From: Clostridiaceae bacterium
GTDB lineage: Bacteria; Bacillota; Clostridia; Saccharofermentanales; DTU023
Length of the DNA stretch: 64,000 bases
NCBI GenBank assembly: GCA_012838795.1
Contig: DUOO01000003.1
Location: forward strand, 69,663-133,662
Reading direction: 5' to 3'
A program made the translations under genes and the position numbers. Shown here one piece after another: positions 20,082 to 42,810 of the stretch. The notes beneath the pieces are model-generated. The model saw only the letters and a program-made list of their open reading frames with translations. It was not told the origin of the DNA and ran no database searches. Every line of letters starts with the position of its first letter. Position 1 is the stretch's first letter.

Positions 20082-20789
20082 ATGGTTAATATGGAATATA
20101 ATACAATAATCGATAAGAAGAGTGTCAGTCAACAGATAATAGATCTTATTTTACAAGAAATAATAGAGGGTAGATTAAAGCTGGGGGACAGAATCTTAAA
20201 TGAAAGAGAATTTGCCGCAGAACTGGGTGTATCCCGTGTACCTTTACGCGAAGCGATTTCGGCTTTATCACTATTAGGAATTCTTACACCGAAACAAGGA
20301 GAAGGTACTTTTGTAACAAATTTCAATTCAGAAAGATTCAGTAAAATAATTTTCGCAAACGTCAAACTTCAAAATATATCGCAACAGGATATATTCGATG
20401 TAAGAAAAGATTTTGAATGCAGTGCAGCAAAATATGCTGCTAAAAGAGCAACTAAAGAAGATATTAAAAAAATAAAGCACTATTATGATTTACATAAAAA
20501 AACAATAGATCAGTATCTTTCAGGAGAAGGAAATTTATTATCAGTAACAAAAGCAGATATGCAATTCCATGATGCAATTGCATCAGCAGCAAACAATGAA
20601 TTTTTTAAGCAGTTTGTGGATGCCCTGCACTATTCAATAAAGTATATGCATTCAATATATAAAAATAAAAAAGATGAATTGAATATATTTTCAACTCATC
20701 ATAAGAAAATCTTGGATGCAATAGAAGAAGGAAATCCTGATTTAGCTCATAAGAACATGTCGGAACATCTCAATACAATTGTTTTCTGA
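20082..20789 (+). CDS. GntR-family transcriptional regulator, FadR/FCD subfamily
   Basis: 235-aa ORF with an N-terminal wHTH (ERELAAELGVSRVPLREAISAL-like: EREFAAELGVSRVPLREAISAL) and an all-helical C-terminal FCD-like domain. An alternative ATG lies at 20091. Confidence 0.88.
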   Translation: MVNMEYNTIIDKKSVSQQIIDLILQEIIEGRLKLGDRILNEREFAAELGVSRVPLREAISALSLLGILTPKQGEGTFVTNFNSERFSKIIFANVKLQNISQQDIFDVRKDFECSAAKYAAKRATKEDIKKIKHYYDLHKKTIDQYLSGEGNLLSVTKADMQFHDAIASAANNEFFKQFVDALHYSIKYMHSIYKNKKDELNIFSTHHKKILDAIEEGNPDLAHKNMSEHLNTIVF

Positions 20790-20850
20790 TTAACAAATGA
20801 ATAATTAATTTTGATTGAATGAGAAATAAAGGTAAATATTTTTTCGACAA

Positions 20851-20871
20851 ATGGTAATACCACATTACCAC
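20851..20871. promoter_or_regulatory. Candidate GntR operator, copy 2
   Basis: ATGGTAATACCACATTACCAC. TGGTAATACCA is a perfect palindrome. A TATAAT lies at 20886-20891, just downstream. Confidence 0.55.
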
Positions 20872-20912
20872 TAAGAAAAGCAATATATAATCAAGAAAAG
20901 GGTTTAATATTT

Positions 20913-20945
20913 CTATTAATGGTAACACCATATTACCATTAATAG
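20913..20945. promoter_or_regulatory. Candidate GntR operator, copy 3, embedded in a 13-bp perfect inverted repeat
   Basis: CTATTAATGGTAA (20913-20925) and TTACCATTAATAG (20933-20945) are exact reverse complements. The core ATGGTAACACCATATTACCAT (20919-20939) matches copy 2 at 18 of 21 positions. Confidence 0.55.
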
Positions 20946-21098
20946 AATGTGACATTGCTGCTTTAATAATAAAAAAAGAAATGGAGGGAGAAGTAAAAAA
21001 CTGAATAATTGTAGGCAGGTAATTTTTTAACAAATTTTAGTTTGTTAAGCGGATGGATGAAACAAATTAAGTATTAAAGATTAGGAGTTTGAATTGTT

Positions 21099-22175
21099 AT
21101 GAAAAAAAGTATTTTTAAAAAAGTATTGAGCTTATTGTTAGTCAGCATTTTGATATTTGCTATGGCTGCATGCAGTAAAAAAGAAACTAAAGAAGACGAG
21201 AAAAAAGAGGACGTCAAAGAAGAATCAAAAGAAGAATTAAAGGAAGAGGAAAAAGAAGAAGAAAAGGAAGAGGAAGAGGCTTCAGATTCAAAAGAAAAAT
21301 ATCGAATAGTCTATGCTATTTGTGATAAAGAAACCACAACAGCGGTTGCTTCTGAAGAGCGCATGAAAGAACTTGAAAAAGAACACGATAATATCGAGTT
21401 TACTTATATGGCTAACAGTAATGCAGATACGAATGTAGCTATCGAAAATGCGCGTAATGTTATTACATTGAAACCGGATTTGTATATTAATTACCTGGTC
21501 AGCGCGGCAAGTGAGCGAGTCGGAGAAATGATGGCCGAAGCCGGTCAACCAATGCTTTCTGTACAATCACGTTGTGGCGATACCCCGCTCTGTGCTATTG
21601 ACAATGTCCAAATCGGTCATGATATGGCAGTGGCTCTTACCGATTATTATAAAGAAAACTGGGCAGATGAAGAAGATGTTCAAATCCTTTTTGCCAATAT
21701 GCCTGACTCAGGTCAAATGTTTGTAGACAGACAAACCGGATCTGAAGAATATTTTGCTCAGGAAATTCCGGATCTTCCACAGTCATTGATTAACGGACAC
21801 GGCAACATGGAAACAAACAGACAGATGTTCGCTGATTTCTTAACCGCTCATCCTGATTCAAAGGTTTTAGTTTGGGCTCATATTGATGAACCGGCATTCG
21901 GTATATTAGCCGCAGCTGAAGCAGCTCACAGAACAGACGATATTGTAATTGTAAGTACCGGCGGTATAGCAGATTTTTATGCGGAAATGCAAGAAGAAGG
22001 CAGCCCGTTATTAGGAACAGTGGATTATTTCCCCGATAAATGGTCTGACACAATTTTGGAAGTAGCATTGGATATGCTTGAGGGCAAAGAAGTTCCGGAT
22101 ACAACTGTACTTTATACAGAATTGGTTACATTAGAGAATCTGGCGGAATTGCGTCCTGAATATGTAATCGATTAA
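21099..22175 (+). CDS. Sugar ABC transporter substrate-binding lipoprotein (PBP type I, ribose-binding-like)
   Basis: 358-aa ORF with a signal peptide and lipobox (IFAMAAC), a Glu/Lys-rich tether, then a periplasmic-binding-protein fold. Confidence 0.8.
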   Translation: MKKSIFKKVLSLLLVSILIFAMAACSKKETKEDEKKEDVKEESKEELKEEEKEEEKEEEEASDSKEKYRIVYAICDKETTTAVASEERMKELEKEHDNIEFTYMANSNADTNVAIENARNVITLKPDLYINYLVSAASERVGEMMAEAGQPMLSVQSRCGDTPLCAIDNVQIGHDMAVALTDYYKENWADEEDVQILFANMPDSGQMFVDRQTGSEEYFAQEIPDLPQSLINGHGNMETNRQMFADFLTAHPDSKVLVWAHIDEPAFGILAAAEAAHRTDDIVIVSTGGIADFYAEMQEEGSPLLGTVDYFPDKWSDTILEVALDMLEGKEVPDTTVLYTELVTLENLAELRPEYVID

Positions 22176-22206
22176 CAGTTTCTGCCTGTGAGGAGAGGAA
22201 AACGCC

Positions 22207-23712
22207 ATGAACATAATTGAAGCGAGGAAAATTTGTAAATCATTCGGCGGTATAAGCGCAGTAAGTGACGTTGATTTTGAATTACGAAAAGGCGAGATAC
22301 ATTCAATCATCGGTGAAAACGGTGCAGGGAAATCAACTTTTATCAAAATGATTTCCGGTGATTACATTGCGGATTCCGGGACAATAACATTCGAAGGGCG
22401 GGAAGTAAAATTAACCCGCCCTGAAGATGCAACATCACTGGGGATCAGAACGATTTATCAGGAATTCAATTTGATTCCAACCATGAGTGTTGCAGAGAAT
22501 ATATTTTTGGGCGATTTACCGCTCAAAAATAAAGTTGTTTCTTGGCCGGAAATGTATCAAAAAGCTCATGACTTATTAGCCAGACTGGGTGTAAATATCG
22601 ATTCACGAAAAAATGTCAGTGAACTCACGGTTGCAGAACAACAGATGGTAGAGATATGTAAAGCACTTTCGAAAGACATGAAGGTATTGATACTTGATGA
22701 ACCGACAGCTGCACTTAACGAAAATGAAAGCCAGAAATTATTTACATTAATCAGAACATTATCATCCCAAGGGGTGAGTATTGTATATATCTCTCATTAC
22801 TTGAATGAAATAATGGATATTTCTGAAAGAATATCCGTCTTCCGTGATGGCAAAAAAGTTACCACTGTAAACAAAGAAGACACAAAAGTATCAGATTTGG
22901 TTACATATATTGTCGGTCATGAAATGGGCCATCAATATAAGGAACGACAGGTCGAGTTCGGAGCAACAATATTAGAAGTAAATTCAATTTCAAATAATTA
23001 CTTAACAGATATTACTTTTCAAGTAAAGAGTAAAGAAATAGTCGGCCTATATGGTTTGTTAGGAGCAGGTCAACTAGAGATCTGCCGCACCCTATTTGGT
23101 GATTTACCGATAAATAGTGGTGAAGTGAAAATCAACAATAAATCTGTTGCTATTTCAAGCCCGATTGAAGCAATGAAAAACGGCATCGGTCTTGTTCCTT
23201 CAGACAGAAAAAACGAAGGTTTAATGATGAATATGTCTGTAGGAGTGAATTCTACATTCAGTGGTACATATTTGCGTTCGAAACATGGAGTTATAGATTT
23301 TGCGAAAGAGAGAGAAGTTTTTGAAAAGTTAAAGCAAGATGTGCAAATTAAAACCACAGGGTACAACCAAAACATTACAGATCTTTCCGGCGGCAATCAA
23401 CAAAAAACATTGATATCGCGCTGGATGGATTATGATTCCAGTGTATTGATACTGGCAGATCCCACCCGTGGAGTAGACATAGGTGCGAAATCCGAAATAT
23501 ATGATCTTTTATATGATTTTTGTAATTTAGGTAAAGCTGTTCTGTTTATGTCATCTGATTTACCTGAAGTTTTAGGTGTTGCTGACAGACTGATTTTGTT
23601 TAGTGACGGTCGGATTCTGACTGAATGTAATTGTAATGAAGTCAGTCAGGCGGATGTGTTGAATTTATTAAATGCCAGCGAAGAACAGAGTGAAGAAACT
23701 GTTGCTTCTTAA
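22207..23712 (+). CDS. Sugar ABC transporter ATP-binding protein (tandem ABC domains, RbsA/MglA-like)
   Basis: 501-aa ORF with Walker A GENGAGKST, a degenerate second P-loop, signature LSGGNQQK and Walker B ILDEPT/ILADPT. Confidence 0.9.
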   Translation: MNIIEARKICKSFGGISAVSDVDFELRKGEIHSIIGENGAGKSTFIKMISGDYIADSGTITFEGREVKLTRPEDATSLGIRTIYQEFNLIPTMSVAENIFLGDLPLKNKVVSWPEMYQKAHDLLARLGVNIDSRKNVSELTVAEQQMVEICKALSKDMKVLILDEPTAALNENESQKLFTLIRTLSSQGVSIVYISHYLNEIMDISERISVFRDGKKVTTVNKEDTKVSDLVTYIVGHEMGHQYKERQVEFGATILEVNSISNNYLTDITFQVKSKEIVGLYGLLGAGQLEICRTLFGDLPINSGEVKINNKSVAISSPIEAMKNGIGLVPSDRKNEGLMMNMSVGVNSTFSGTYLRSKHGVIDFAKEREVFEKLKQDVQIKTTGYNQNITDLSGGNQQKTLISRWMDYDSSVLILADPTRGVDIGAKSEIYDLLYDFCNLGKAVLFMSSDLPEVLGVADRLILFSDGRILTECNCNEVSQADVLNLLNASEEQSEETVAS

Positions 23713-23729
23713 ACAGAACGGAGGACAAA

Positions 23730-24701
23730 ATGTCGAAAAAATTAGGAAATATTAAAGCAAGACTATCATCATCAGGTTCAGTGTTTGGTCTGTTTTTGGT
23801 TTATATTTTATTAGTTATTTTACTTTCATTTTTATCAAAATATTTTTTTCAATTAAGTAATTTTGCCAATATCGGAATTTCGATAAGTGTGTATGGTATT
23901 GCAGCCCTTGGTGTTACGATGATTATTTTATCCGGTGGCCTTGATATGTCAGTAGCAGGCAATATGGCATTATCGAATGTAATTTCCGTGCTGCTTTTAA
24001 CGAAAACCGATCTCAGTCCATATCTGATAATGATAGTTTGTGTCTTAGTAGGATTAATTGTAGGAATAATAAACGGTTTTTTAGTTACCGCGTTTGATCT
24101 GCATCCGACGATCGTAACGCTGGGAACTGCAGGAATAACCAGAGGTACGGCATTTGTAATATGTGGCGGCATGTCAATGATGCACGATTCAAAAGAGATT
24201 AAATTTTTAGGCTCAGGAAAAATTCTGGGTATACCGGTAAGTCTGCTGTTTTTCGTAGTACTTTTGATAATTATGTTTTTAGTGCTGAAATACACTACTT
24301 TCGGTCGTTCCGTCTATGCGATTGGCGGAAATAGAAGAGCCAGTCGTTTAGCAGGAATTTCAGTGAAGAAAACACAAATGTTAATTTTTTCTATATCAGG
24401 GATGTTAGCGGGAATTGCAGCTCTGATCCTAACCGGTACTACCGGCGGCGGAGGAGGCAATGCAGCAACCGGATGGGAGAGTGATATCATCAGTGCCGTT
24501 CTTTTGGGAGGAACCAGTATTGCAGGAGGAAAAGGTACAGTATTTGGTACCGCGCTGGGTATCTTATTTATCGGTACGTTAAATAACGGCATGTCATTAT
24601 TAGGTACAAATTCATATGTACAAATGATCTTGAGGGGCCTGGTATTAATAATTGCGGTTGTTATAGATAGTGTCAGAAACAGAAAAGCTATAGCTAAGTA
24701 A
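23730..24701 (+). CDS. Sugar ABC transporter permease (RbsC-like)
   Basis: 323-aa polytopic ORF with a Gly-rich C-terminal segment (TGTTGGGGGNAATG), as in branched-chain/monosaccharide (BPD_transp_2) permeases. Confidence 0.88.
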   Translation: MSKKLGNIKARLSSSGSVFGLFLVYILLVILLSFLSKYFFQLSNFANIGISISVYGIAALGVTMIILSGGLDMSVAGNMALSNVISVLLLTKTDLSPYLIMIVCVLVGLIVGIINGFLVTAFDLHPTIVTLGTAGITRGTAFVICGGMSMMHDSKEIKFLGSGKILGIPVSLLFFVVLLIIMFLVLKYTTFGRSVYAIGGNRRASRLAGISVKKTQMLIFSISGMLAGIAALILTGTTGGGGGNAATGWESDIISAVLLGGTSIAGGKGTVFGTALGILFIGTLNNGMSLLGTNSYVQMILRGLVLIIAVVIDSVRNRKAIAK

Positions 24702-24748
24702 ATCGATAAGTATTGAGAAACATTAATTGAAAACAAAGGAGAGTAAAA

Positions 24749-25789
24749 ATGACAAAAGACTATTTTAAAAGAGTAAGTGCCAAAACCCCGACCCGTTTTT
24801 GGATAAACAATGTAACTGAAGAGCAAGCTCGATTGGCAATAGAAGCCGGAGCAATTAATTGCACACAAAATCCGACATATCCGTCAAAAATATTAGGTAA
24901 CCCTGTGTTAGGAGAGGGACCGGATAATTTGCTTAAGAAATTGATGGAAGAAGATGCGGACAACGAATCTGTATTAACAAAATTTCAGCTTCATAGTGTA
25001 AAGAAAATTTGTGATATTTTCTTACCGGTTTTTGAAAAATCAAAAGGTAAAGAAGGGTATGTAACTATTCAATCAAGTCCGCTTGATGAATCCTTCGAAA
25101 ATATCGTAACCTGTGCTGAAATGTACAAAGATGTTGCACCGAATATTATGATAAAAATTCCTGCAACGGAATCAGGTCTGGAAGCGATACGTTATCTTTG
25201 TGAACAAGGGTATGCGGTATTAGCTACTGAAGTTATGAGTGTAGCACAAGCAATTGATGTATGTGAAATTTATGAAGAATGTTTAAAGAAAAACTCTGAC
25301 GTAAAGACTTTTGCGTTTGCGCATATTGCAGGGATATTCGATGAGGAATTGTCTGCTCAGGTAGAAGCGCAAAACATCGATGTAGACAGAGATGCTTTGT
25401 GGCAAGCAGGCATAATTGTTGCAAAAAAGATCAGACGTATGATGGATGATCGCGGATATAAAGCAGAAATGCTTTCAGGCGGTGCGAGGGGATTGCATCA
25501 CTTTACCGAGATGGTAGGTGCCCGTTCAGGCATTACCATTAATTGGCAGGGAACCGCTGACAAATTATTAGAAGCAAATGGTGTCGTGATTGATCGTTTC
25601 TCTTGTGCGCCTGCTCCGGATGTTATTGATGAATTATTAGAAAAAATCCCCGATTTTAAACGAGCATATTTACGTGACGGATTAAAAGCAGAAGAATATG
25701 AAGATTTTGCTCCGGTGCGCAGATTTAGAAATCAGTTTGAAAATGGATGGAATAAAGCATTAGATTATATTGCTGATCGAAGAAAATAA
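24749..25789 (+). CDS. Transaldolase-family (class I aldolase fold) protein
   Basis: 346-aa ORF with N-terminal TRFWINNVTEEQ...NCTQNP and the Schiff-base lysine context IMIKIPAT. Confidence 0.75.
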   Translation: MTKDYFKRVSAKTPTRFWINNVTEEQARLAIEAGAINCTQNPTYPSKILGNPVLGEGPDNLLKKLMEEDADNESVLTKFQLHSVKKICDIFLPVFEKSKGKEGYVTIQSSPLDESFENIVTCAEMYKDVAPNIMIKIPATESGLEAIRYLCEQGYAVLATEVMSVAQAIDVCEIYEECLKKNSDVKTFAFAHIAGIFDEELSAQVEAQNIDVDRDALWQAGIIVAKKIRRMMDDRGYKAEMLSGGARGLHHFTEMVGARSGITINWQGTADKLLEANGVVIDRFSCAPAPDVIDELLEKIPDFKRAYLRDGLKAEEYEDFAPVRRFRNQFENGWNKALDYIADRRK

Positions 25790-25835
25790 TAAATATTTTT
25801 TTATTAAATATCAAATATATAACAGAAAGGAATAG

Positions 25836-26954
25836 GTGAATGTTATGTCAGATAATAATGTAGTAAAAGATGACGGTAGAGGAATATTGTCCGGTACATG
25901 GGTATCAAGAGATCAGGATATTGATCGGGATCAGTGGTTAAGAGATTGTTTTCCTGAATGGGGTACATTCTTAAATCAAGAAATAGAAAACTTTGAAGTT
26001 CCGGTAGGCCAAGTAGCCTTATGGTGGTGCGGCGGTACATCATGGATTTTAAAAACTGATGCCGGCGGGATTTTCTGGATAGATCAATATTGCGGCCCGT
26101 CAATATACACAGAGCGAGTAGGAAATTGCGGTGTTTGCAGACAAGGCGGTGCTGTGAGTATCAATTGGCTGCGATTAAATGTACAAGTTATTGATCCTTG
26201 GAAATTCAACAGAGTAGACGGTGTTTTCTGTACACATATGCATCAAGATCATACGGATCTTTATGCTGTTAAAGCTGCTTTGAAAACAACAGATGCTCCA
26301 TTTTATGCGGCACCGAAAGCTGCTGAAAAATTGAGAGTGTTTAAGGTTCCGGAAGAACGTATCCATGTTGCGAGGGTGGGAGAATCCGTGCGAGTCCCGG
26401 GAGCGGAGGTAGATTTCTTAGTTTGTTATGACGACACGGCGATCAGAACTACAGCCGGTGATGAACTGTTACCATATGAAGAAGCAGCTGTATCATTGTT
26501 GTTTAAGACTTCCGGAGGAAACATTTTATTTTTAGCCGATACTTGGTATAACGACGGTTATGTAGAAGTTGCAGCTAAATATGATATAGATGTAGCTCTG
26601 TTTAATATGGGATTTAATCCTCCGGGAGCTACTGATAAAATGACACCGTATGATGCTGCCAGATTAGGTCAAACTCTCAAAGCAAAACTATTGATTCCGT
26701 ATCACTATGATAATTGGGCTAATTGTACAGGAGATCCTGCAATGCTTACTCGTCAGTTGGAGTATATCGTTTCCGATTTAACACCTGAAACAAAAACGGT
26801 GATTATGGCATGTGGCGGACGTTTCCTTTATCCCCAGGATCAAGATATTAAACGTTATAGATATCCTGATGGTAGTGAAGATTTCAAATATGAGCGTTCA
26901 GAACATTATAAACGTAGAAAAAAATATGAAGATTCTCTGAAACAGGAGAAATAA
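25836..26954 (+). CDS. UlaG-like metallo-beta-lactamase-fold hydrolase (putative phospho-sugar lactonase)
   Basis: 372-aa ORF with the HxHxDH motif (HMHQDHTD). The N-terminus (FPEWGTFLNQEIE...VALWWCGGTSWILKT) parallels E. coli UlaG. The start could be GTG 25836 or ATG 25845. Confidence 0.75.
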   Translation: MNVMSDNNVVKDDGRGILSGTWVSRDQDIDRDQWLRDCFPEWGTFLNQEIENFEVPVGQVALWWCGGTSWILKTDAGGIFWIDQYCGPSIYTERVGNCGVCRQGGAVSINWLRLNVQVIDPWKFNRVDGVFCTHMHQDHTDLYAVKAALKTTDAPFYAAPKAAEKLRVFKVPEERIHVARVGESVRVPGAEVDFLVCYDDTAIRTTAGDELLPYEEAAVSLLFKTSGGNILFLADTWYNDGYVEVAAKYDIDVALFNMGFNPPGATDKMTPYDAARLGQTLKAKLLIPYHYDNWANCTGDPAMLTRQLEYIVSDLTPETKTVIMACGGRFLYPQDQDIKRYRYPDGSEDFKYERSEHYKRRKKYEDSLKQEK

Positions 26955-26976
26955 AGGGAATATAAACCCTTTCCGG

Positions 26977-27109
26977 ACAAGTACAATGAAGCACTCACAA
27001 AACGATTATGATTTCAATTGCTGATGAAGCACCAGCATGCACGTATATGATTTTAATTGCTGATGATATTCCTCGCTAAAAGACCTACATGTGCTTCATT
27101 GTACTTTGT
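26977..27109. repeat. Inverted-repeat-bounded structured element (candidate leader RNA or MITE-like element)
   Basis: The 18-nt arm ACAAGTACAATGAAGCAC (26977-26994) pairs with GTGCTTCATTGTACTTTGT (27091-27109), with one extra T. Inside are two 21-nt direct repeats, TATGATTT[C/T]AATTGCTGATGA (27007-27027 and 27046-27066). A hairpin, TGCTG-ATGAAGCAC-CAGCA (27019-27037), carries in its loop a copy of part of the left arm. Confidence 0.6.
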
Positions 27110-27156
27110 CGTAAAAAGGATGTTGTTTTTGTTAACAACACAAGGAGTGTGAATTT

Positions 27157-28098
27157 ATGAGTAAAAAAAGAAGAGAAAAAACAATTATAACCGCTTCAAT
27201 TACAGGAGCAATTCATACGCCAAGTATGTCGCCGTATCTTCCTAAAGGGAAAGACGAGATTATTCAAAACGCTGTTGACGCGTGGAAAGCGGGAGCTGCA
27301 ATTGTACATATTCATGCGAGAAAACCTGTAACGGGGGAGCCGACTTCTGACTTGGATTACTTCAGAGAAATATTAAACGGTATTAAAGAACAGTGTAATG
27401 TAGTTATCGGGATTACTACCGGTGGCGCATTAGGAATGACCGTCGAAGAACGTTTTGCTGTTTTATCCGAATTTCAACCTGAAATGGCAACTTGTAATGC
27501 AGGGACATCCAATTTTGTTTTGTCCGAATTGACAAAAACATTCGATAAACCGCAGTTTGATTGGGAAGAGCCGTTTTTATTAAGAACATATGACAGCTTT
27601 TTCAAAAACACATTCGCTGATATAGAACATGCATTAACTTTGATGAATGAACACCGGATCAGACCGGAATTCGAGGTTTTTGATCTTGGACAAATTAATA
27701 CTGTTGCTTATTTCAGGCGTAAAGGACTTGTTAAAGATCCGATATATATTCAGTTTGTACCCGGAACATTGGGTGGAATACCGTTAAGTAACGATAATAT
27801 TACATTTATGATTAAAACGGCTCAACAGTTATTGGGTTCAGATATAAGGTACTCATTAGTAGGATCAGGACGCAGAATGTTCCGTGCAGAAACTTTCCAT
27901 GTTTTACAAGGCGGCAATGTAAGGGTCGGGATGGAAGACTCTTTATATATCAATATTCAAGGTGAACTTGCTCGCAATAATGCTGAACAAGTAACAAAAA
28001 TTAAAAGTATTTTAGAATTACTGGATTATGAAATAGCCAGTTCAGATGAAGCCAGAGAAATGTTACAGCTTAAAGGTGTGGATAAAGTCAATTTCTAG
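27157..28098 (+). CDS. Beta-keto acid cleavage enzyme family protein (BKACE, DUF849)
   Basis: 313-aa ORF. The N-terminus (IITASITGAIHTPSMSPYLPKGKDEII...AGAAIVHIHAR) is typical of 3-keto-5-aminohexanoate cleavage enzyme homologues. RBS AAGGAG lies at 27142-27147. Confidence 0.8.
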   Translation: MSKKRREKTIITASITGAIHTPSMSPYLPKGKDEIIQNAVDAWKAGAAIVHIHARKPVTGEPTSDLDYFREILNGIKEQCNVVIGITTGGALGMTVEERFAVLSEFQPEMATCNAGTSNFVLSELTKTFDKPQFDWEEPFLLRTYDSFFKNTFADIEHALTLMNEHRIRPEFEVFDLGQINTVAYFRRKGLVKDPIYIQFVPGTLGGIPLSNDNITFMIKTAQQLLGSDIRYSLVGSGRRMFRAETFHVLQGGNVRVGMEDSLYINIQGELARNNAEQVTKIKSILELLDYEIASSDEAREMLQLKGVDKVNF

Positions 28099-28126
28099 AG
28101 GGTAAGTTTATAATATAAATATAGTC

Positions 28127-28152
28127 AGCCAGTGATAAAGTTATCACTGGCT
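28127..28152. promoter_or_regulatory. Perfect 12-bp inverted repeat (hairpin or protein-binding palindrome)
   Basis: AGCCAGTGATAA (28127-28138) and TTATCACTGGCT (28141-28152) are exact reverse complements. No T-run follows, so it is not a canonical terminator. Confidence 0.5.
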
Positions 28153-28297
28153 AAATGAAGCATCAGACAGCGGTTTGTTCTATGTGAATATGAAATTTTT
28201 TTCATGGAATCCCAATAAGACGGGGATAATTTGTTCTGGAGAACAATCTCAGGTTTTATTTTTTGTGGATGTAAGCGGACAATTTAGTGAGGTTAAT

Positions 28298-28708
28298 ATG
28301 AGTTTCGTCTATTCAGAATTAAAAGTGGGTGATTCGAATAATTTTCAAAAAACAATTACAGTTGCCGATATAACATTATTTGCAGCGATATCAGGTGATT
28401 TTAATCCTATGCACGTCAGCGCACAATTTGCGAAAAAAACTCAATACAAACAAAGAATTGCACATGGAGCACTAACTTCCGGATTAATTTCCGCTGTGAT
28501 AGCAAATACTTTTCCTGCTTCTATATACATATCGCAATATGTTGAATATTTAGCACCTGTGTTTATAGATGATACCATTACAGCAATTATTGTTTGTAAA
28601 GAAAAATTAGGGAAAGGCAGAGTGAGATTACAAACAAAATGTATTAATCAAAATGATGTATTAGTTGTTGATGGCGAAGCTATTGTTAGATTAGCCAGAG
28701 ATAGATAA
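28298..28708 (+). CDS. MaoC-like (R)-specific enoyl-CoA hydratase / hot-dog fold dehydratase
   Basis: Motif FAAISGDFNPMHV...RIAHG. The ORF track starts at 28175, but ATG 28298 follows GTGAGG with good spacing and gives the usual ~136-aa size. Confidence 0.8.
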   Translation: MSFVYSELKVGDSNNFQKTITVADITLFAAISGDFNPMHVSAQFAKKTQYKQRIAHGALTSGLISAVIANTFPASIYISQYVEYLAPVFIDDTITAIIVCKEKLGKGRVRLQTKCINQNDVLVVDGEAIVRLARDR

Positions 28709-28775
28709 TTGAACAACCGGCAAAAATTTAAATTTAACTCGTGGATAATTGGTTTATTTTTTTTGAATGATAGTA

Positions 28776-28784
28776 TGGTATAAT
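28776..28784 (+). promoter_or_regulatory. Extended -10 promoter element upstream of the kinase gene
   Basis: TGGTATAAT (TGnTATAAT) about 40 nt upstream of ATG 28825. No good -35 at proper spacing. Confidence 0.35.
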
Positions 28785-28824
28785 ATATCAAAATGCAAAT
28801 AAACAATAGAAATGAGGTTTAAGC

Positions 28825-29898
28825 ATGAAATTAAAAGAAAATTGCAAGTATAATTTAGTTATCCCGACAAGTATGGGACTCAGACTAACACCTGTGGATC
28901 GGATGCCGGTACATATGAGTAATCAATATCTTATGACTTCGACCAGTGCGGAATCAAATGTAGGACAAATATCTGCTTCTTTGGGTAAAAAAGTTAAATT
29001 ACTAACTGCCTTTGTGGAAGACAATGCAATTTCTGATTTTATCAAGGGCGAATTGCGTAAACGCAATATTGACTTTGAAGGTCCTGATGTTCCAACAGGC
29101 GGACCATGGGGTTATCGCCATCACATCAATATTGCTGATAGTGGTTATGGTATGCGCGGACCTCATGTTCTCAATGACAGAGCCGGTGAAGTAGGTCGTT
29201 CTTTGAACGCGAAATATTTTGATCTCGACAGGATTTTCAAAGAAGAAGGAGCACAAATCATTCATATCTCAGGTTTGATTGCAGCTTTATCCGCAGATAC
29301 GAGTGAATTCTGTTTGGAAGTTGCAAGAGCAGCTAAAGCCAACGGTACCAAGATAGCCTTTGATTTAAATCACAGAGCATCTTTCTGGGTAGGTCGTGAG
29401 GAAGAATTACGTGCAGCTTTTGATGAAATTGCCGGCTATGCAGATATCTTGATCGGCAATGAGGAAGATTATCAATTAGCTCTGGGAATCAAAGGACCTG
29501 AAGCAGGTGGTGTCGATATTGCTGATAAGATTGACGGTTTCAAAGAAATGGTCAAACGTGTTCATGAGGCATATCCTAACTGTCAAGTATTTGCAAATAC
29601 CTTACGTGATGTAAAAAGTGCAAATGAACATGAATGGGGTGCAATCCTCTACGTCAATGATAATTTTTATGTTGTTGAGCCACGCCCGATTCCGGTACTT
29701 GACCGCATTGGTGGCGGAGACGGATTTGTTGGTGGTTTGCTTTACTCAATTCTCAGCGGTTGGGATGAAGACAAATGGGTAAAATTTGCTTGGGCAACCG
29801 GTGCTTTGGCTTCAACCTTACTCACAGACTATGCTTGTCCTGCAAATGAAGAACAAGTTTGGGCAATTTACGAAGGTAATGCTCGAGTAAAACGATGA
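28825..29898 (+). CDS. PfkB-family sugar-acid kinase, 2-dehydro-3-deoxygluconokinase (KdgK)-like
   Basis: 357-aa ORF with N-terminal SMGLRLTP...SAESNVGQISASLG, ATP/anion-hole motif GGGDGFVGGLLY and NEEDY. Confidence 0.8.
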   Translation: MKLKENCKYNLVIPTSMGLRLTPVDRMPVHMSNQYLMTSTSAESNVGQISASLGKKVKLLTAFVEDNAISDFIKGELRKRNIDFEGPDVPTGGPWGYRHHINIADSGYGMRGPHVLNDRAGEVGRSLNAKYFDLDRIFKEEGAQIIHISGLIAALSADTSEFCLEVARAAKANGTKIAFDLNHRASFWVGREEELRAAFDEIAGYADILIGNEEDYQLALGIKGPEAGGVDIADKIDGFKEMVKRVHEAYPNCQVFANTLRDVKSANEHEWGAILYVNDNFYVVEPRPIPVLDRIGGGDGFVGGLLYSILSGWDEDKWVKFAWATGALASTLLTDYACPANEEQVWAIYEGNARVKR

Positions 29899-29953
29899 CA
29901 AATTTCGATAGCACTGTTTGTCGGAGGATGACTCTGTATGAAAGAGGTGAAGA

Positions 29954-31399
29954 ATGTCTGATATTGGCTTAATCGGTTTAGCTGTTATGGGCGAAAACTT
30001 AGTGATGAACATGGAAAGCAACGGCTTTTCTGTTTCGGTATATAATCGCACAACTTCTAAGGTAGATGATTTTATTAATGGCAGGGCAAAGGGAAAAAAT
30101 ATTCAAGGTGCTTATTCTTTGGAAGAATTAGTTGAACAAGTCGACAGACCGAGAAAAATTATGATAATGGTTAAAGCCGGTAAACCTGTTGACAATATAA
30201 TTGAACAATTAATTCCTTTACTGGATGAAGGTGATATTTTGATTGATGGAGGAAATTCACATTTCCCGGATACCGAAAGACGCACTAAATATATTGAGAG
30301 TAAAGGCTTGCTGTATATCGGCAGCGGTGTTTCCGGTGGTGAAGAGGGTGCTTTAAAAGGACCATCTCTAATGCCGGGTGGTTCGCCGGATGCATGGCCG
30401 CTCATAAAACCAATATTCCAATCAATAAGTGCTAAAGTTGATGAAGGTGCCGCTTGTTGTGAATGGGTAGGCAGTGGTGGTGCCGGTCATTTTGTCAAAA
30501 TGGTTCACAATGGAATTGAATATGGCGATATGCAGCTTATTTGTGAAGTTTATCAGATAATGAGAGATTATCTGGGCATGACAAATGAAGAAATGCAAGC
30601 TGCATTTGCCAAGTGGAACGAAGGTAAGCTTGACAGTTACTTGATTGAAATTACTGCAGATATCTTGGGCTACAAAGATGAGAATGGCGAAGCTGTCGTA
30701 GATTATGTTTTAGATGCTGCCGGTCAAAAAGGCACCGGTAAATGGACCGGCATTAGTGCTTTAGAAGAAGGAGTACCGCTGACATTAATAGTGGAAGCAG
30801 TTTTTTCGCGTTGCCTCAGTTCACTTAAAGATGAAAGAATAGAAGCAGCTAAAATATTAAAAGGGCCTGAAGTTAAATTTGAAGGGGATAAAGAGCCTAT
30901 ACTCAAGGCTTTACATGATGCTTTATATGCTTCAAAGATTGTTTCTTATGCTCAGGGATATGCTCTGATGAGAACAGCCTCTGAAACATATGATTGGGAT
31001 CTCCAATATGGTGATATCGCTTTGATGTGGCGTGGTGGTTGTATTATCCGCAGTGCCTTTTTAGGTAAGATTAAAGAAGCCTTTGATAAACAACCCGGTT
31101 TGAAAAATTTACTCTTAGATGACTATTTCCGCAAGGAAATTGATGCTGCTCAAGCAGGTTGGCGTGAAGTTGTAGCTGAAGCGGTTAAAGCTGGTATTCC
31201 GGTACCCGCTATTTCATCTGCTCTTGCCTATTATGACGGTTATCGAACAGAAAATCTTCCTGCCAACTTATTACAAGCGCAAAGAGACTATTTTGGAGCT
31301 CATACTTATGAAAGAACAGATCGTCCTCGCGGTCAATTTTTCCATACCAATTGGACCGGCGAGGGTGGTGACACTGCAGCTTCAAACTACGATGTATAA
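29954..31399 (+). CDS. gnd: 6-phosphogluconate dehydrogenase, decarboxylating
   Basis: 481-aa ORF with NADP fold [12 protein letters not shown] plus [21 protein letters not shown] and [10 protein letters not shown]. Confidence 0.95.
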
Positions 31400-31438
31400 T
31401 TATCATTATCAGCTATTTTATTATTATATATGTTTAGT

Positions 31439-31480
31439 AAAGATCAGACGAGAATATTAATTCTCGTCTGATCTTTAATT
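31439..31480 (+). terminator. Terminator hairpin after gnd
   Basis: Perfect 17-bp stem AAAGATCAGACGAGAAT (31439-31455) / ATTCTCGTCTGATCTTT (31460-31476). The trailing T-tract is short (TTTAATTT). Confidence 0.7.
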
Positions 31481-31541
31481 TGGTTGAAAATTATTTAGAT
31501 ATTAATTCTATAATTGAAACAATATTTAAAAGTCAATAAAT

Positions 31542-31580
31542 AGAAAATCGCTTTCAACATAATATTGAAAGCGGTTTTCT
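31542..31580. terminator. Second hairpin; possible bidirectional or backup terminator
   Basis: AGAAAATCGCTTTCAA (31542-31557) pairs with TTGAAAGCGGTTTTCT (31565-31580), with one G-U pair. No clean T-run on either strand. Confidence 0.4.
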
Positions 31581-32065
31581 ATAGAGGTAAGTATTTTAAG
31601 GATTGTAGTGTGTAAGTTTTCTTTAATACAATCAATTCTATCATATAATTATTTATTTTTTCAATTTATTTACATTGTTATTATATAATATGCCATAAAA
31701 AAACCATAAAAATTAATAATTTATACAATGTTTGAATATTATATCAGTTTTCAGCAATGAATTTAAATATTATTGAATATTTATATAATTGTAACATAAT
31801 AACTAAAAATTATCCTTATTATCTTAAAACTCTAAAATCTTATTTGTATGATTTTTTCAATCTATTAAACATCAAAATTTTAAAATTTATGAAATTGCTG
31901 TATCAATCAGGACCTTTCAGAGTATTAATTTGTTAATTCGTATAAAAATAACAATCGAATCTTTACATAATCATATTAAACAAGTAGATTTAAGCTTAAT
32001 TATCATATTGAATGACGATTTAATTTTAATAATTAAATGATAAATTTCAGAAATGATTTGCAACT

Positions 32066-32392
32066 AGATTTTTCAGAGGAAACGCGTGATTTGTTGAAAC
32101 CGATAGAGAGGCAAGACAGGTGGAAATTGCCGGCAGAGACTTATTGCTACTCAGTTCCTCGCATCATATGTGATTGCAGTTTGAGATTTAAGCTTAGAAT
32201 TTCAAATGACTAATCCAAGTAGTTTCTTTTATACCCGGTCGAGAAATCAAAAGATCAGGATCATATTAAAAGTAAATTATTGAATGATAGAAAAATACCA
32301 GTTTAATAGATGCAGAGTGAATGAAAATTAATTTTCATTAATTTGGGTGGTACCGCGATAATTCGTCCCAGAGAGTAATCTCTGGGTTTTTT
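32066..32392 (+). promoter_or_regulatory. T-box leader riboswitch (Leu-type, candidate CUC specifier) with intrinsic terminator
   Basis: Stem I elements are the AG bulge GATAGAGAG (32102-32110) and the distal-loop GGTGGAA (32119-32125). CTC occurs at 32150-32152 and 32158-32160 on the 3' side. The T-box sequence is AATTTGGGTGGTACCGCG (32340-32357). The terminator stem is CCCAGAGA (32367-32374) / TCTCTGGG (32379-32386) plus T6. It lies directly upstream of leuA. Confidence 0.85.
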
Positions 32393-41145: not shown

Positions 41146-42810
41146 ATGAAGTTAGCGAGTGATAAGGTTTTACGTGGAGCTGAAAGAGCACCAAATCGCA
41201 GTTTGTTTTATGCATTGGGTTATACTGAAGAGCAATTAAAACGCCCGTTGATCGGAGTTGTCAGTGCTTATAGCGAAATAGTTCCCGGTCACATGAATCT
41301 CGATAAATTAACCCAAAGTGTTAAAACCGGAGTTTTAATGAATGGCGGAACTCCGATCATGATTCCTTCGATTGGAGTTTGTGATGGAATTGCGATGGGA
41401 CATCACGGTATGAAATATTCTTTGCCCAGCAGAGAATTGATTGCTGACAGTGTTGAATCGATGGCTATCGCTCATGGTATAGATGCACTGGTTTTAATTC
41501 CTAACTGTGACAAAATTGTTCCCGGAATGATTATGGGAGCTCTAAGACTTAATTTGCCGACTATATTGGTCAGCGGTGGTCCGATGTTGGCAGGACAAAG
41601 TGATCAAGGTTCAATCAGTCTATCTAAAATATTTGAAGCAGTTGGCAGCTATAAAGCAAATATGATTACGGCAGAAGAACTTTTACAGTGTGAACAGTCG
41701 GTATGTCCGAGTTGCGGCAGTTGTGCCGGGATGTATACCGCAAATTCCATGAATTGCTTGAGTGAAGCAATCGGCCTGGCACTTCCGGGTAACGGAACTA
41801 TACCTGAACCATTTTCAGCCAGACAACGTTTGGCCAAAGAAACCGGCATGATGATTATGGAATTGTTACGCAAGGATATCCGGATCAAAGATATTATTAC
41901 TCCGGATTCAGTGCGTAATGCAATTGCTTCCGATATGGCACTTGGTTGCTCAACCAACACGGTGTTACATCTTTTGGCGATAGCTACGGAAGCGGGAATT
42001 GAAGTAGACTTAAATATCTTTAATGAATTGAGTGAAACCATACCTAATCTTTGTCATTTAGCACCTGCAGGACCGACTCACATGGAAGATTTATATTTTG
42101 CCGGCGGTGTAGGGGCCGTTCTTAAAGAATTAGCTAAAAAAGATTACATCAATCCGGATTTGATGACTGTTACAACAAAAACGGTGGGTGAAAATATTGC
42201 CGATGTAAAGACCTATGATAACGGTGCAATCAGACCGATTGATAATCCGTACAGTAAAGTAGGGGGGCTAGCAATTTTATATGGTAATATTGCGAAAAAA
42301 GGGGCAGTAGTAAAGCGTTCAGCTGTTGCAACCGAAATGTTAAAACATGAAGGTCCGGCCAGAGTATTTGACAGTGAAGATGCTGCGATTGAAACAATTT
42401 ATGCGGGAAAAATCAATCCGGGTGATGTAGTTGTCATTCGGTACGAAGGTCCGAAAGGCGGACCGGGGATGCGCGAAATGCTCAATCCGACGTCGGCTTT
42501 AGCCGGTATGAAATTAGATAAGAGCGTTGCCTTAATCACAGACGGCAGATTCTCCGGAGCCTCAAGAGGAGCAGCAATCGGTCACGTTGCACCGGAAGCT
42601 GCATTAGGCGGCGCGATCGGCATTATCCGGGAAGGTGACACTATTGCTATCGATATTCCGAATTATTCACTCAATCTGAAAATATCCGATGCTGAATTTG
42701 CAGAGCGTATGGCAAATTTTGAACCACAAGAAAAGAATGTAGTTGGTGGCTGGCTCAATCGTTATCGCAGATTGGTCGCCAGTTCTGATAAAGGAGCTGT
42801 TTTGGAATGA
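41146..42810 (+). CDS. ilvD: Dihydroxy-acid dehydratase
   Basis: 554-aa ORF with [23 protein letters not shown] and TDGRFSG. Confidence 0.96.

Follow-up and report, generated by a model that had tools for sequence, protein, structure and literature searches.

Between two genes of an apparent catabolic operon in an uncultured Clostridiaceae bacterium (contig DUOO01000003.1) lies a small non-coding element, closed by a long inverted repeat, that looks like an insertion which the clade has since retained. The operon occupies part of a 64-kb stretch of this contig (64,000 nt, referred to here in full as the window), and the element (26975-27110) separates a gene for a lactonase from a gene for an enzyme of the BKACE family. 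Its repeated parts are conserved in a sister lineage in a manner that points to selection on the structure of the plus-strand RNA. The explanation we prefer, tentatively and at somewhat less than even confidence, is that the retained insertion works as a module for processing and differential stability of the mRNA between the two cistrons. The evidence does not support a ligand-sensing switch based on competition for the element's right arm.

Anatomy of the element

The lactonase and BKACE genes are separated by a spacer of 202 nt (26955-27156), in which the 3' end of the element falls 48 nt short of the BKACE ATG at 27157, where the initial annotation of this DNA had placed it. With its two 20-nt arms and 96-nt interior the element is small and non-coding (136 nt, G+C 0.38, matching the A/T-rich host). 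The genes, arms, repeats and flanking hairpins are arranged as follows.

25836-26954, + strand: upstream gene, UlaG-like metallo-beta-lactamase-fold lactonase
26953-26972, + strand: hairpin H1, AAAGGG-AATATAA-CCCTTT, overlapping the lactonase stop codon (26952-26954)
26975-27110, + strand: whole element, conserved in both lineages; two 20-nt arms plus 96-nt interior, 136 nt
26975-26994, + strand: left arm of the long helix P1, GACAAGTACAATGAAGCAC; perfect core 26979-26994, pair probability 0.99
26986-27023, + strand: apparent tandem unit 1 (38 nt, from the spacing of the 9-mers), opening with the ATGAAGCAC copy that doubles as the left arm's inner end
27002-27032, + strand: direct repeat 1 plus the 9-mer; 27004-27032 identical in the sister lineage (lineage B)
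27024-27062, + strand: apparent tandem unit 2 (39 nt, from the spacing of the direct repeats), opening with the second ATGAAGCAC, the proposed competing partner
27041-27066, + strand: direct repeat 2; 27045-27063 identical in lineage B, 27039-27063 with one change
27091-27110, + strand: right arm of the long helix P1, GTGCTTCATTGTACTTTGTC, containing a single bulged U
27121-27140, + strand: hairpin H3, TGTTGTT-TTTGTT-AACAACA, ending 1 nt before the Shine-Dalgarno sequence
27142-27159, + strand: Shine-Dalgarno sequence AAGGAG (27142-27147) and BKACE start codon (27157-27159)
27157-28098, + strand: downstream gene, BKACE family enzyme (PF05853, 313 bits)

The arms form a 20-bp inverted repeat with one bulge (26975-26994 / 27091-27110). 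The terminal repeat of 18/19 nt described in the initial annotation is real and correctly located, its uneven count reflecting the bulge and no mismatch: the left arm ACAAGTACAATGAAGCAC (26977-26994) pairs throughout with the right arm GTGCTTCATTGTACTTTGT (27091-27109), except at a single bulged base. A perfect core of 16 nt runs through both arms (26979-26994 / 27091-27106), and a repeat finder stretched the pair to 25 nt at 84% identity (26970-26994 / 27091-27115). Judged by Markov shuffles, 64 kb should contain 0.03 perfect 16-nt inverted repeats with arms within 300 nt of each other; they occur at just two loci of the window, the element and the terminator of the operon (31438-31477).

Between the arms stand two direct repeats, TATGATTT[C/T]AATTGCTGATGA, at 27007 and 27046, with the 39-nt distance between starts and the one-base difference, here C/T, that had been reported for them; they lengthen to 26 nt at 88% identity (27002 / 27041). 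The duplicated 9-mer was also correctly described: ATGAAGCAC starts at 26986 and again at 27024, and the complementary 9-mer starts at 27091. Because the 9-mer and the 26-mer repeat at the same 38/39-nt offset, in units that by eye are ~77% identical, the internal repeats look like one diverged tandem duplication that took in the inner end of the left arm; it is too diverged to be reported by Tandem Repeats Finder. The small hairpin noted earlier around the second ATGAAGCAC is present in the window, with a stem of just 4 bp (GCTG / CAGC), and is lost in lineage B, which also lacks the outer stem extension CCTTT / AAAGG (26968-26972 / 27117-27121) seen in the window only.

Conservation in a sister lineage

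Within the window's own lineage, contigs from eight different samples all match the element at 100% identity, and the element is unchanged as well in a strain that otherwise differs a little (98.75% over 19.8 kb). A second protein, 98% identical in amino acids, shares a 90% cluster with the BKACE enzyme and comes from metagenome-assembled genomes (MAGs) labelled 'Saccharofermentanales bacterium'. The sister-lineage loci (L179-L182), here called lineage B, are 91.8% identical to the window in nucleotides over the 7 kb from transporter to BKACE. At four-fold-degenerate sites the identity is 0.73 across the whole comparison and 0.79-0.84 in those halves of the genes that adjoin the spacer. The loci carry the element (L179, 9828-9955) at the same site in a spacer of 193 nt. 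Beyond BKACE the gene order changes: the MaoC, PfkB and 6-phosphogluconate dehydrogenase genes that follow in the window are missing, and BKACE is followed directly by an ilvD-like dehydratase gene (10942-12627 in L179-L181) that is 87% identical in nucleotides to the window gene at 41146-42810. By this comparison the second half of the operon appears to have been remodelled in the sister lineage while the element and BKACE stayed together.

For a measure of constraint, four repeat blocks were fixed from the window alone (26970-26994, 27002-27032, 27041-27066 and 27091-27115). They differ between the lineages in 9 of 108 columns, some of the nine being gap-placement artefacts at block edges, as against 36 of 95 columns in the linkers (Fisher p = 4e-7), and relative to the four-fold-site rate the conservation of the blocks reaches p = 0.002 to 1e-6. 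The internal copy of ATGAAGCAC is 100% conserved; the spacing of the direct repeats is 39 nt in the window and 40 nt in lineage B. Since every short open reading frame (ORF) of the element is frame-shifted between the lineages, this conservation does not appear to be protein-coding, and we read the element as a non-coding feature under selection, at least across the two lineages.

The changes that have occurred sit where a plus-strand helix could bear them. In the left arm the sole change, A26990G, converts an A-U pair to G.U on the plus strand and gives a C.A mismatch on the minus strand, while in the right arm the sole substitution, T27106A, falls at the bulged U. The flanking hairpins behave likewise: H1 keeps a 5-bp stem under a different loop, and H3 has identical arms (GTTGTT / AACAAC) around a loop changed from TTTGTT to GATAAAT. 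Because the arm changes keep pairing and the stems of H1 and H3 are kept while their loops changed, the pattern points to selection on the structure of the plus-strand RNA. The initial annotation had expected that a cis-regulatory RNA would be conserved, as a single copy and with compensatory changes, upstream of BKACE orthologues, and that a mobile element would show many dispersed copies. At the sole close locus available, lineage B, the element is indeed conserved upstream of BKACE with structure-compatible changes in its arms; the compensatory double changes are missing. In the DNA searched (the 64-kb window, ~15 kb beyond it and the 21-kb lineage B loci) it is also single-copy, and on those terms the evidence leans towards a cis-acting element over junk.

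Folding, strand and the question of a switch

All genes of the 64 kb lie on the plus strand, and plus-strand RNA was taken as the relevant molecule for that reason. The layout of the operon, together with a consensus scan that found no promoter-like site and no plus-strand terminator-like site in the spacer, leads us to infer that the element should be transcribed within a polycistronic plus-strand mRNA. In that RNA, P1 forms with pair probabilities of 0.99 in the window and is the dominant helix of the lineage B fold as well; for the fold as a whole, z is -1.97 in the window as against -3.48 in lineage B. On neither strand does the 96-nt interior show more structure than its shuffles (z +0.76 and +0.47).

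The same calculations bear on the idea, put forward in the initial annotation, that the right arm may alternate between the left arm and the internal ATGAAGCAC after the manner of a riboswitch or attenuator. Both potential partners are present, the internal one has stayed unchanged in lineage B, in which the copy in the left arm has gained a G.U pair, and the element stands upstream of BKACE in both lineages despite their different downstream genes. The two partners are nevertheless far from equal: the competing helix (27024-27032 : 27091-27099) has an equilibrium probability of ~1e-7 against 0.99 for P1, and the fold in which it is forced reaches -38.3 instead of -47.5 kcal/mol, a cost of ~9 kcal/mol. 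An expression platform is lacking, in that the choice of partner neither makes nor removes a terminator, the Shine-Dalgarno sequence lies outside the competing helices, and no convincing sequestration of it is tied to that choice (the best conserved match to it is UCCU:AGGA, 4 bp). The interior is structured at chance level, and the small hairpin that would present the second partner is lost in lineage B. That the element belongs to no recognised riboswitch class is borne out by Rfam, which holds no match to it at the gathering threshold or at E <= 10; a permissive Rfam scan of the spacer returned chance-level snoRNA and miRNA matches only. The element is absent, too, from all other BKACE and lactonase loci examined, and a normal leuA T-box with a clear terminator, elsewhere in the window, shows what form an attenuator takes in this organism. 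The logic of a switch fails on these points, and we judge a riboswitch or attenuator very improbable.

Folding also raised the possibility of a small or antisense RNA transcribed from the minus strand and ending at a terminator-like hairpin (26972-26953). It was prompted by the better minus-strand fold of the window (-58.3 kcal/mol, z = -4.98 vs -1.97), to which can be added a weak terminator-like score for H1 on that strand, and it was dropped once lineage B reversed the asymmetry (minus z = -1.87 vs plus z = -3.48). The advantage in the window is due to G.U pairs in the outer extension, which is not conserved, and A26990G, as described above, damages the minus-strand helix. No minus-strand promoter near the element passes the scan, and the genes of the window all run the other way. 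Of the readings weighed here this seems to us the most remote.

Origin and distribution

How the element came to be here is suggested by loci that lack it. Among 5.8 billion proteins, the next BKACE homologue is 64% identical and the next lactonase 74% identical, and the element is absent from all of the more distant lactonase and BKACE loci examined (~60-74% protein identity). The spacers between lactonase and BKACE genes in relatives measure 50 nt (L005, whose lactonase is 74% identical to that of the window), 19 nt (L135) and 5 nt (L136), and the window's own spacer shrinks to 48 nt if 26968-27121 is removed. Because distant relatives have spacers of 5-50 nt against 202 nt in the window, the element looks like a clade-specific insertion into a normally short spacer. 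Its distribution is confined to a narrow uncultured clade, represented by biogas-reactor MAGs labelled Saccharofermentanales or 'Clostridiaceae bacterium', and the locus is also found on JGI contigs 3300002898 and 3300060823.

An insertion of this shape invites comparison with an inert miniature inverted-repeat transposable element (MITE) or the solitary relic of an insertion sequence, whose terminal inverted repeats would be the arms and in which the direct repeats would be subterminal transposase-binding sites or a BOX-like duplication of an internal module. None of the distant relatives carries the element, it is small and non-coding with terminal inverted repeats, its G+C content of 0.38 is in line with an A/T-rich host, and its internal tandem module resembles boxB (PMC3049150). 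Other copies would be expected of such a family, yet a search of the window allowing up to 3 mismatches found neither motif a second time, searches at low stringency found none either, and no further copy turned up in ~15 kb of the source genome past both window ends or in the 21-kb lineage B loci. Wider searches agreed: blastn found no match in plasmid and phage collections, three scans of viral contigs gave chance matches only, and the six-frame translation of the element resembled nothing in any frame among the 5.8 billion proteins. The 16-mer core of the arms is an unspecific query, and among the at least 119 loci listed for it in genome contigs the matches were chance ones of up to 23 nt, with a sole longer match of 40 nt at 82%. 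A 19-nt gapped arm pattern gave eight chance matches in a collection of metagenome contigs that does not include the source contigs, the source locus itself being absent from the matches. Absence from ~80 kb argues only against a very abundant family. No parent insertion sequence with matching ends lies within the window, no target-site duplication is clear (the candidates, TA and AAAGG, hinge on an arbitrary choice of ends), and the repeat blocks at the orthologous site are conserved above the synonymous rate, which is not expected of an inert relic. A relic that does nothing is in our view unlikely.

A second possibility is that the element is an inverton, the 96-nt interior being flipped by a recombinase encoded elsewhere so as to alter the expression of BKACE and the genes downstream. 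The anatomy fits, with inverted repeats of 16-20 bp around ~100 bp directly upstream of a gene, and arms and internal motifs are both conserved. Three contig ends fall in the interior, at 27008 (L149), 27030 (L002) and 27057 (L148), in two low-coverage Logan assemblies, and by our derivation 27008 is the exact branch point of a k = 31 graph holding both orientations. The other two ends are off the predicted branch, which was expected at 27077; a coverage gap at 27009-27029 accounts for the contig ends, and a drop in coverage at a strong palindrome is possible. A flipped interior would be betrayed by the junctions ACAATGAAGCAC|ATGTAGGTCTTTT or AATCGTTTTGTGA|GTGCTTCATTGTAC, and all 12 independent assemblies of both lineages show one and the same orientation. 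Whichever way the interior is oriented, neither a scan nor manual reading made out a promoter or terminator in it, no recombinase is annotated among the neighbours, and the inside of a metabolic operon would be an unusual site for phase variation. We consider inversion rather unlikely.

The third possibility concerns a transcription factor that binds the DNA itself and would use both 19-nt direct repeats, along with the three ATGAAGCAC sites, as operators or roadblocks inside the operon. In its favour, the direct repeats conserve primary sequence and not structure, down to the C/T difference between the copies. There is, on the other hand, no nearby promoter to regulate; the motifs are absent from the operon's promoter region and the rest of the window; the 39-nt spacing of the repeats shifts by a nucleotide between lineages; and by eye the repeats have no dyad symmetry and no likeness to the GntR-type operators proposed below for 20843-20947. 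We hold a role in DNA binding to be quite improbable.

Several further candidates were considered by eye and rejected: an attC site, CIRCE and cre elements, CodY, Fur, TnrA and Spo0A boxes, sigma-70 and sigma-54 promoters in either orientation, leader peptides and a type I toxin ORF.

A candidate module for processing operon mRNA

From a conserved plus-strand helix inside a transcription unit we infer the steps that would make the element a processing module. A ~136-nt insertion would have entered the spacer of a conserved, co-transcribed lactonase-BKACE pair, and purifying selection would have kept its repeated parts ever since. In the plus-strand mRNA the arms would form the 20-bp P1, closing a 96-nt, largely single-stranded and A/U-rich loop on which two copies of a conserved motif of 19-29 nt would be displayed, and P1 would be bracketed by H1 at the lactonase stop codon and H3 just 5' of the BKACE Shine-Dalgarno sequence. 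An endoribonuclease of the RNase III or RNase Y type may then cut the P1 helix or the A/U-rich loop, after which the transporter-lactonase half could be shielded at its new 3' end by H1 and the BKACE half at its new 5' end by H3. Differential stability would thereby uncouple the levels of the two halves, and the direct repeats might serve as the motif for protein recognition or cleavage.

Several observations weigh against this reading. The insertion origin is deduced from relatives of just 63-74% identity. Only two distinct sequence variants of the element are available, compensatory covariation amounts to 0 of 40 pairs in the consensus fold, and the pattern in the arms rests on two substitutions, for which we estimate roughly p = 0.06. 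The conservation of the blocks does not by itself specify a function, because further short spacers in this operon show 89-100% identity as well, and structure leaves the strict sequence conservation of the direct repeats unexplained, the interior folding no better than shuffles. The minus strand of the window, finally, folds better than the plus strand, and hairpins are strand-symmetric.

We also entertained a device new to science, specific to this clade and derived from an insertion, in which P1 is a platform offering two copies of a conserved single-stranded motif to a dedicated RNA-binding protein or nuclease that would govern the BKACE part of a sugar-acid operon, or in which an inverton within a metabolic operon would turn the later half of the pathway on and off in a biogas-reactor Clostridium; novelty of either sort is an unlikely outcome. 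Were the processing module confirmed, the locus would be a clean natural case of an inserted palindromic element retained and used inside an operon, with the empty state in distant relatives and a conserved occupied state in two sister lineages, and a compact test case for the origin of RNA structures that lie between cistrons and adjust the stoichiometry of the two halves of an operon. The main interest lies in that contrast of empty and occupied sites and in selection after insertion; the practical value is modest, the clade being narrow and uncultured and the element giving no sign of ligand sensing.

Genomic surroundings

The apparent catabolic operon runs from 21099 to 31399, all on the plus strand. 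It is preceded by a gene for a GntR/FCD regulator (20082-20789) and opens with a sugar ABC transporter (21099-24701), followed by a transaldolase-like gene, the lactonase and the element; after the element come BKACE, the MaoC dehydratase, the PfkB kinase and 6-phosphogluconate dehydrogenase (to 31399), and the terminator is a perfect 18-bp hairpin. The best NCBIfam model for the BKACE enzyme is 3,5-dioxohexanoate:acetyl-CoA acetone transferase, at 404 bits, which is under the cutoff of 430 bits. Between the regulator gene and the first transporter gene lie two imperfect palindromes, AATGGTAATACCACATTACCA and AATGGTAACACCATATTACCATT (20843-20947), each containing TGGTAnnACCA. This half-site pattern is typical of operators of the GntR/FadR type, and the palindromes are probably the operon's GntR-type operators.

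Past the terminator, ~600 nt of very A/T-rich sequence (31480-32100) extend towards the T-box of leuA with no convincing ORF, although one pipeline called an ORF of 59 aa there (L144, 12540-12719). The T-box leader (32197-32373) precedes leuA (32435); its sequence includes AATTTGGGTGGTACCGCG, and its terminator consists of CCCAGAGAGTAATCTCTGGG and a T-run after it. Against an Rfam gathering score of 93 it reaches only 52 bits (E = 2.4e-10), and a scan of the whole window at gathering thresholds reported no RNA, the T-box included.

The A/T-rich stretch holds a conserved intergenic module of ~95 nt that has one occurrence in the window (31539-31637) and two or more in the 21-kb locus of lineage B (L179, 1494-1590 and 16583-16681; L180, ~1524-1619). 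It comprises a bidirectional terminator-like hairpin, GAAAACCGCTTTCA...TGAAAGCGGTTTTC, with conserved stems and a variable loop, followed by a promoter-like TTGTAG-18-TACAAT. The module could be a terminator-promoter cassette that has been duplicated, or else the gene of a small RNA.

Elsewhere, a segment beginning at the ribosome-binding site of the PGI gene (window 10075 onward, >= 4 kb, 99.98% identical) is found in two contexts. In the window and in L137 it follows a B12-radical-SAM gene; on contig ERZ27280800 k141_705746 (L140, 17130) it follows sepF, a gene ~5 kb past the window's right end. JGI contigs stop at both junctions (the ends of L139 and L141). The segment reflects either a large duplication or rearrangement polymorphism of the genome or one chimeric assembly, possibly that of the window.

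Comparison with known systems

The element has no feature that falls outside known kinds of element, while its sequence family is itself unrecorded and very narrowly distributed. With riboswitches and T-box leaders it shares a non-coding position upstream of a metabolic gene and a segment with more than one possible pairing; it differs from them in having no conserved structured core, expression platform or Rfam match, in the negligible energetics of its alternative pairing and in being found in two sister lineages only.

Invertible segments are typically intergenic or in 5' untranslated regions, with repeats of 10-20 nt, and their recombinase may be encoded elsewhere (PMC5903667). The Cdi1/cwpV and Cdi4/flgB switches of Clostridioides difficile resemble the element in having short imperfect inverted repeats around 100-200 bp in the leader of a gene (PMC5903667). 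Those switches lie upstream of surface and signalling genes, whereas the element sits in a metabolic operon and in one orientation in the 12 assemblies, and no orientation-dependent promoter or terminator is recognised within it.

Layout alone links the element to intercistronic cleavage sites. In the cggR-gapA operon of Bacillus subtilis, a cut by RNase Y between the cistrons gives the mRNA segments different stabilities. Sites of that type combine a cleavage region between cistrons with flanking stabilising hairpins, leading to unequal gene levels, which is the arrangement we propose here; the examples in the literature, in contrast, are not known to contain a 20-bp long-range helix with internal direct repeats.

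A modular layout is shared with the BOX elements of Streptococcus pneumoniae (boxA-boxB(n)-boxC), in which, as here, terminal modules pair and a tandem internal module adds little to the fold. These are located in intergenic DNA that is transcribed, with proposed effects on the expression of neighbouring genes, and the stem-loop repeats BOX, RUP and ERIC are thought to alter transcript stability (PMC3049150). No sequence similarity between BOX and the element was found, and BOX is a dispersed family whose boxB number varies by strain, unlike the two diverged units present here in both lineages, the element being invariant across the assemblies of a lineage.

The Correia elements of Neisseria (CREE/NEMIS) differ in sequence and in abundance, with 100-250 copies per genome against one known copy here; they usually duplicate a TA target, for which there is no clear counterpart in the window, and can carry an IHF site or promoter halves. 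They are, however, like the element in being non-coding and intergenic, 100-157 bp long and bounded by inverted repeats of ~20-26 bp (PMC2649163), and the fate of their transcripts is the one that our preferred reading would assign to P1: co-transcribed Correia repeats form an mRNA hairpin that is bound or cleaved by RNase III, altering the expression of the adjacent gene (PMC2649163).

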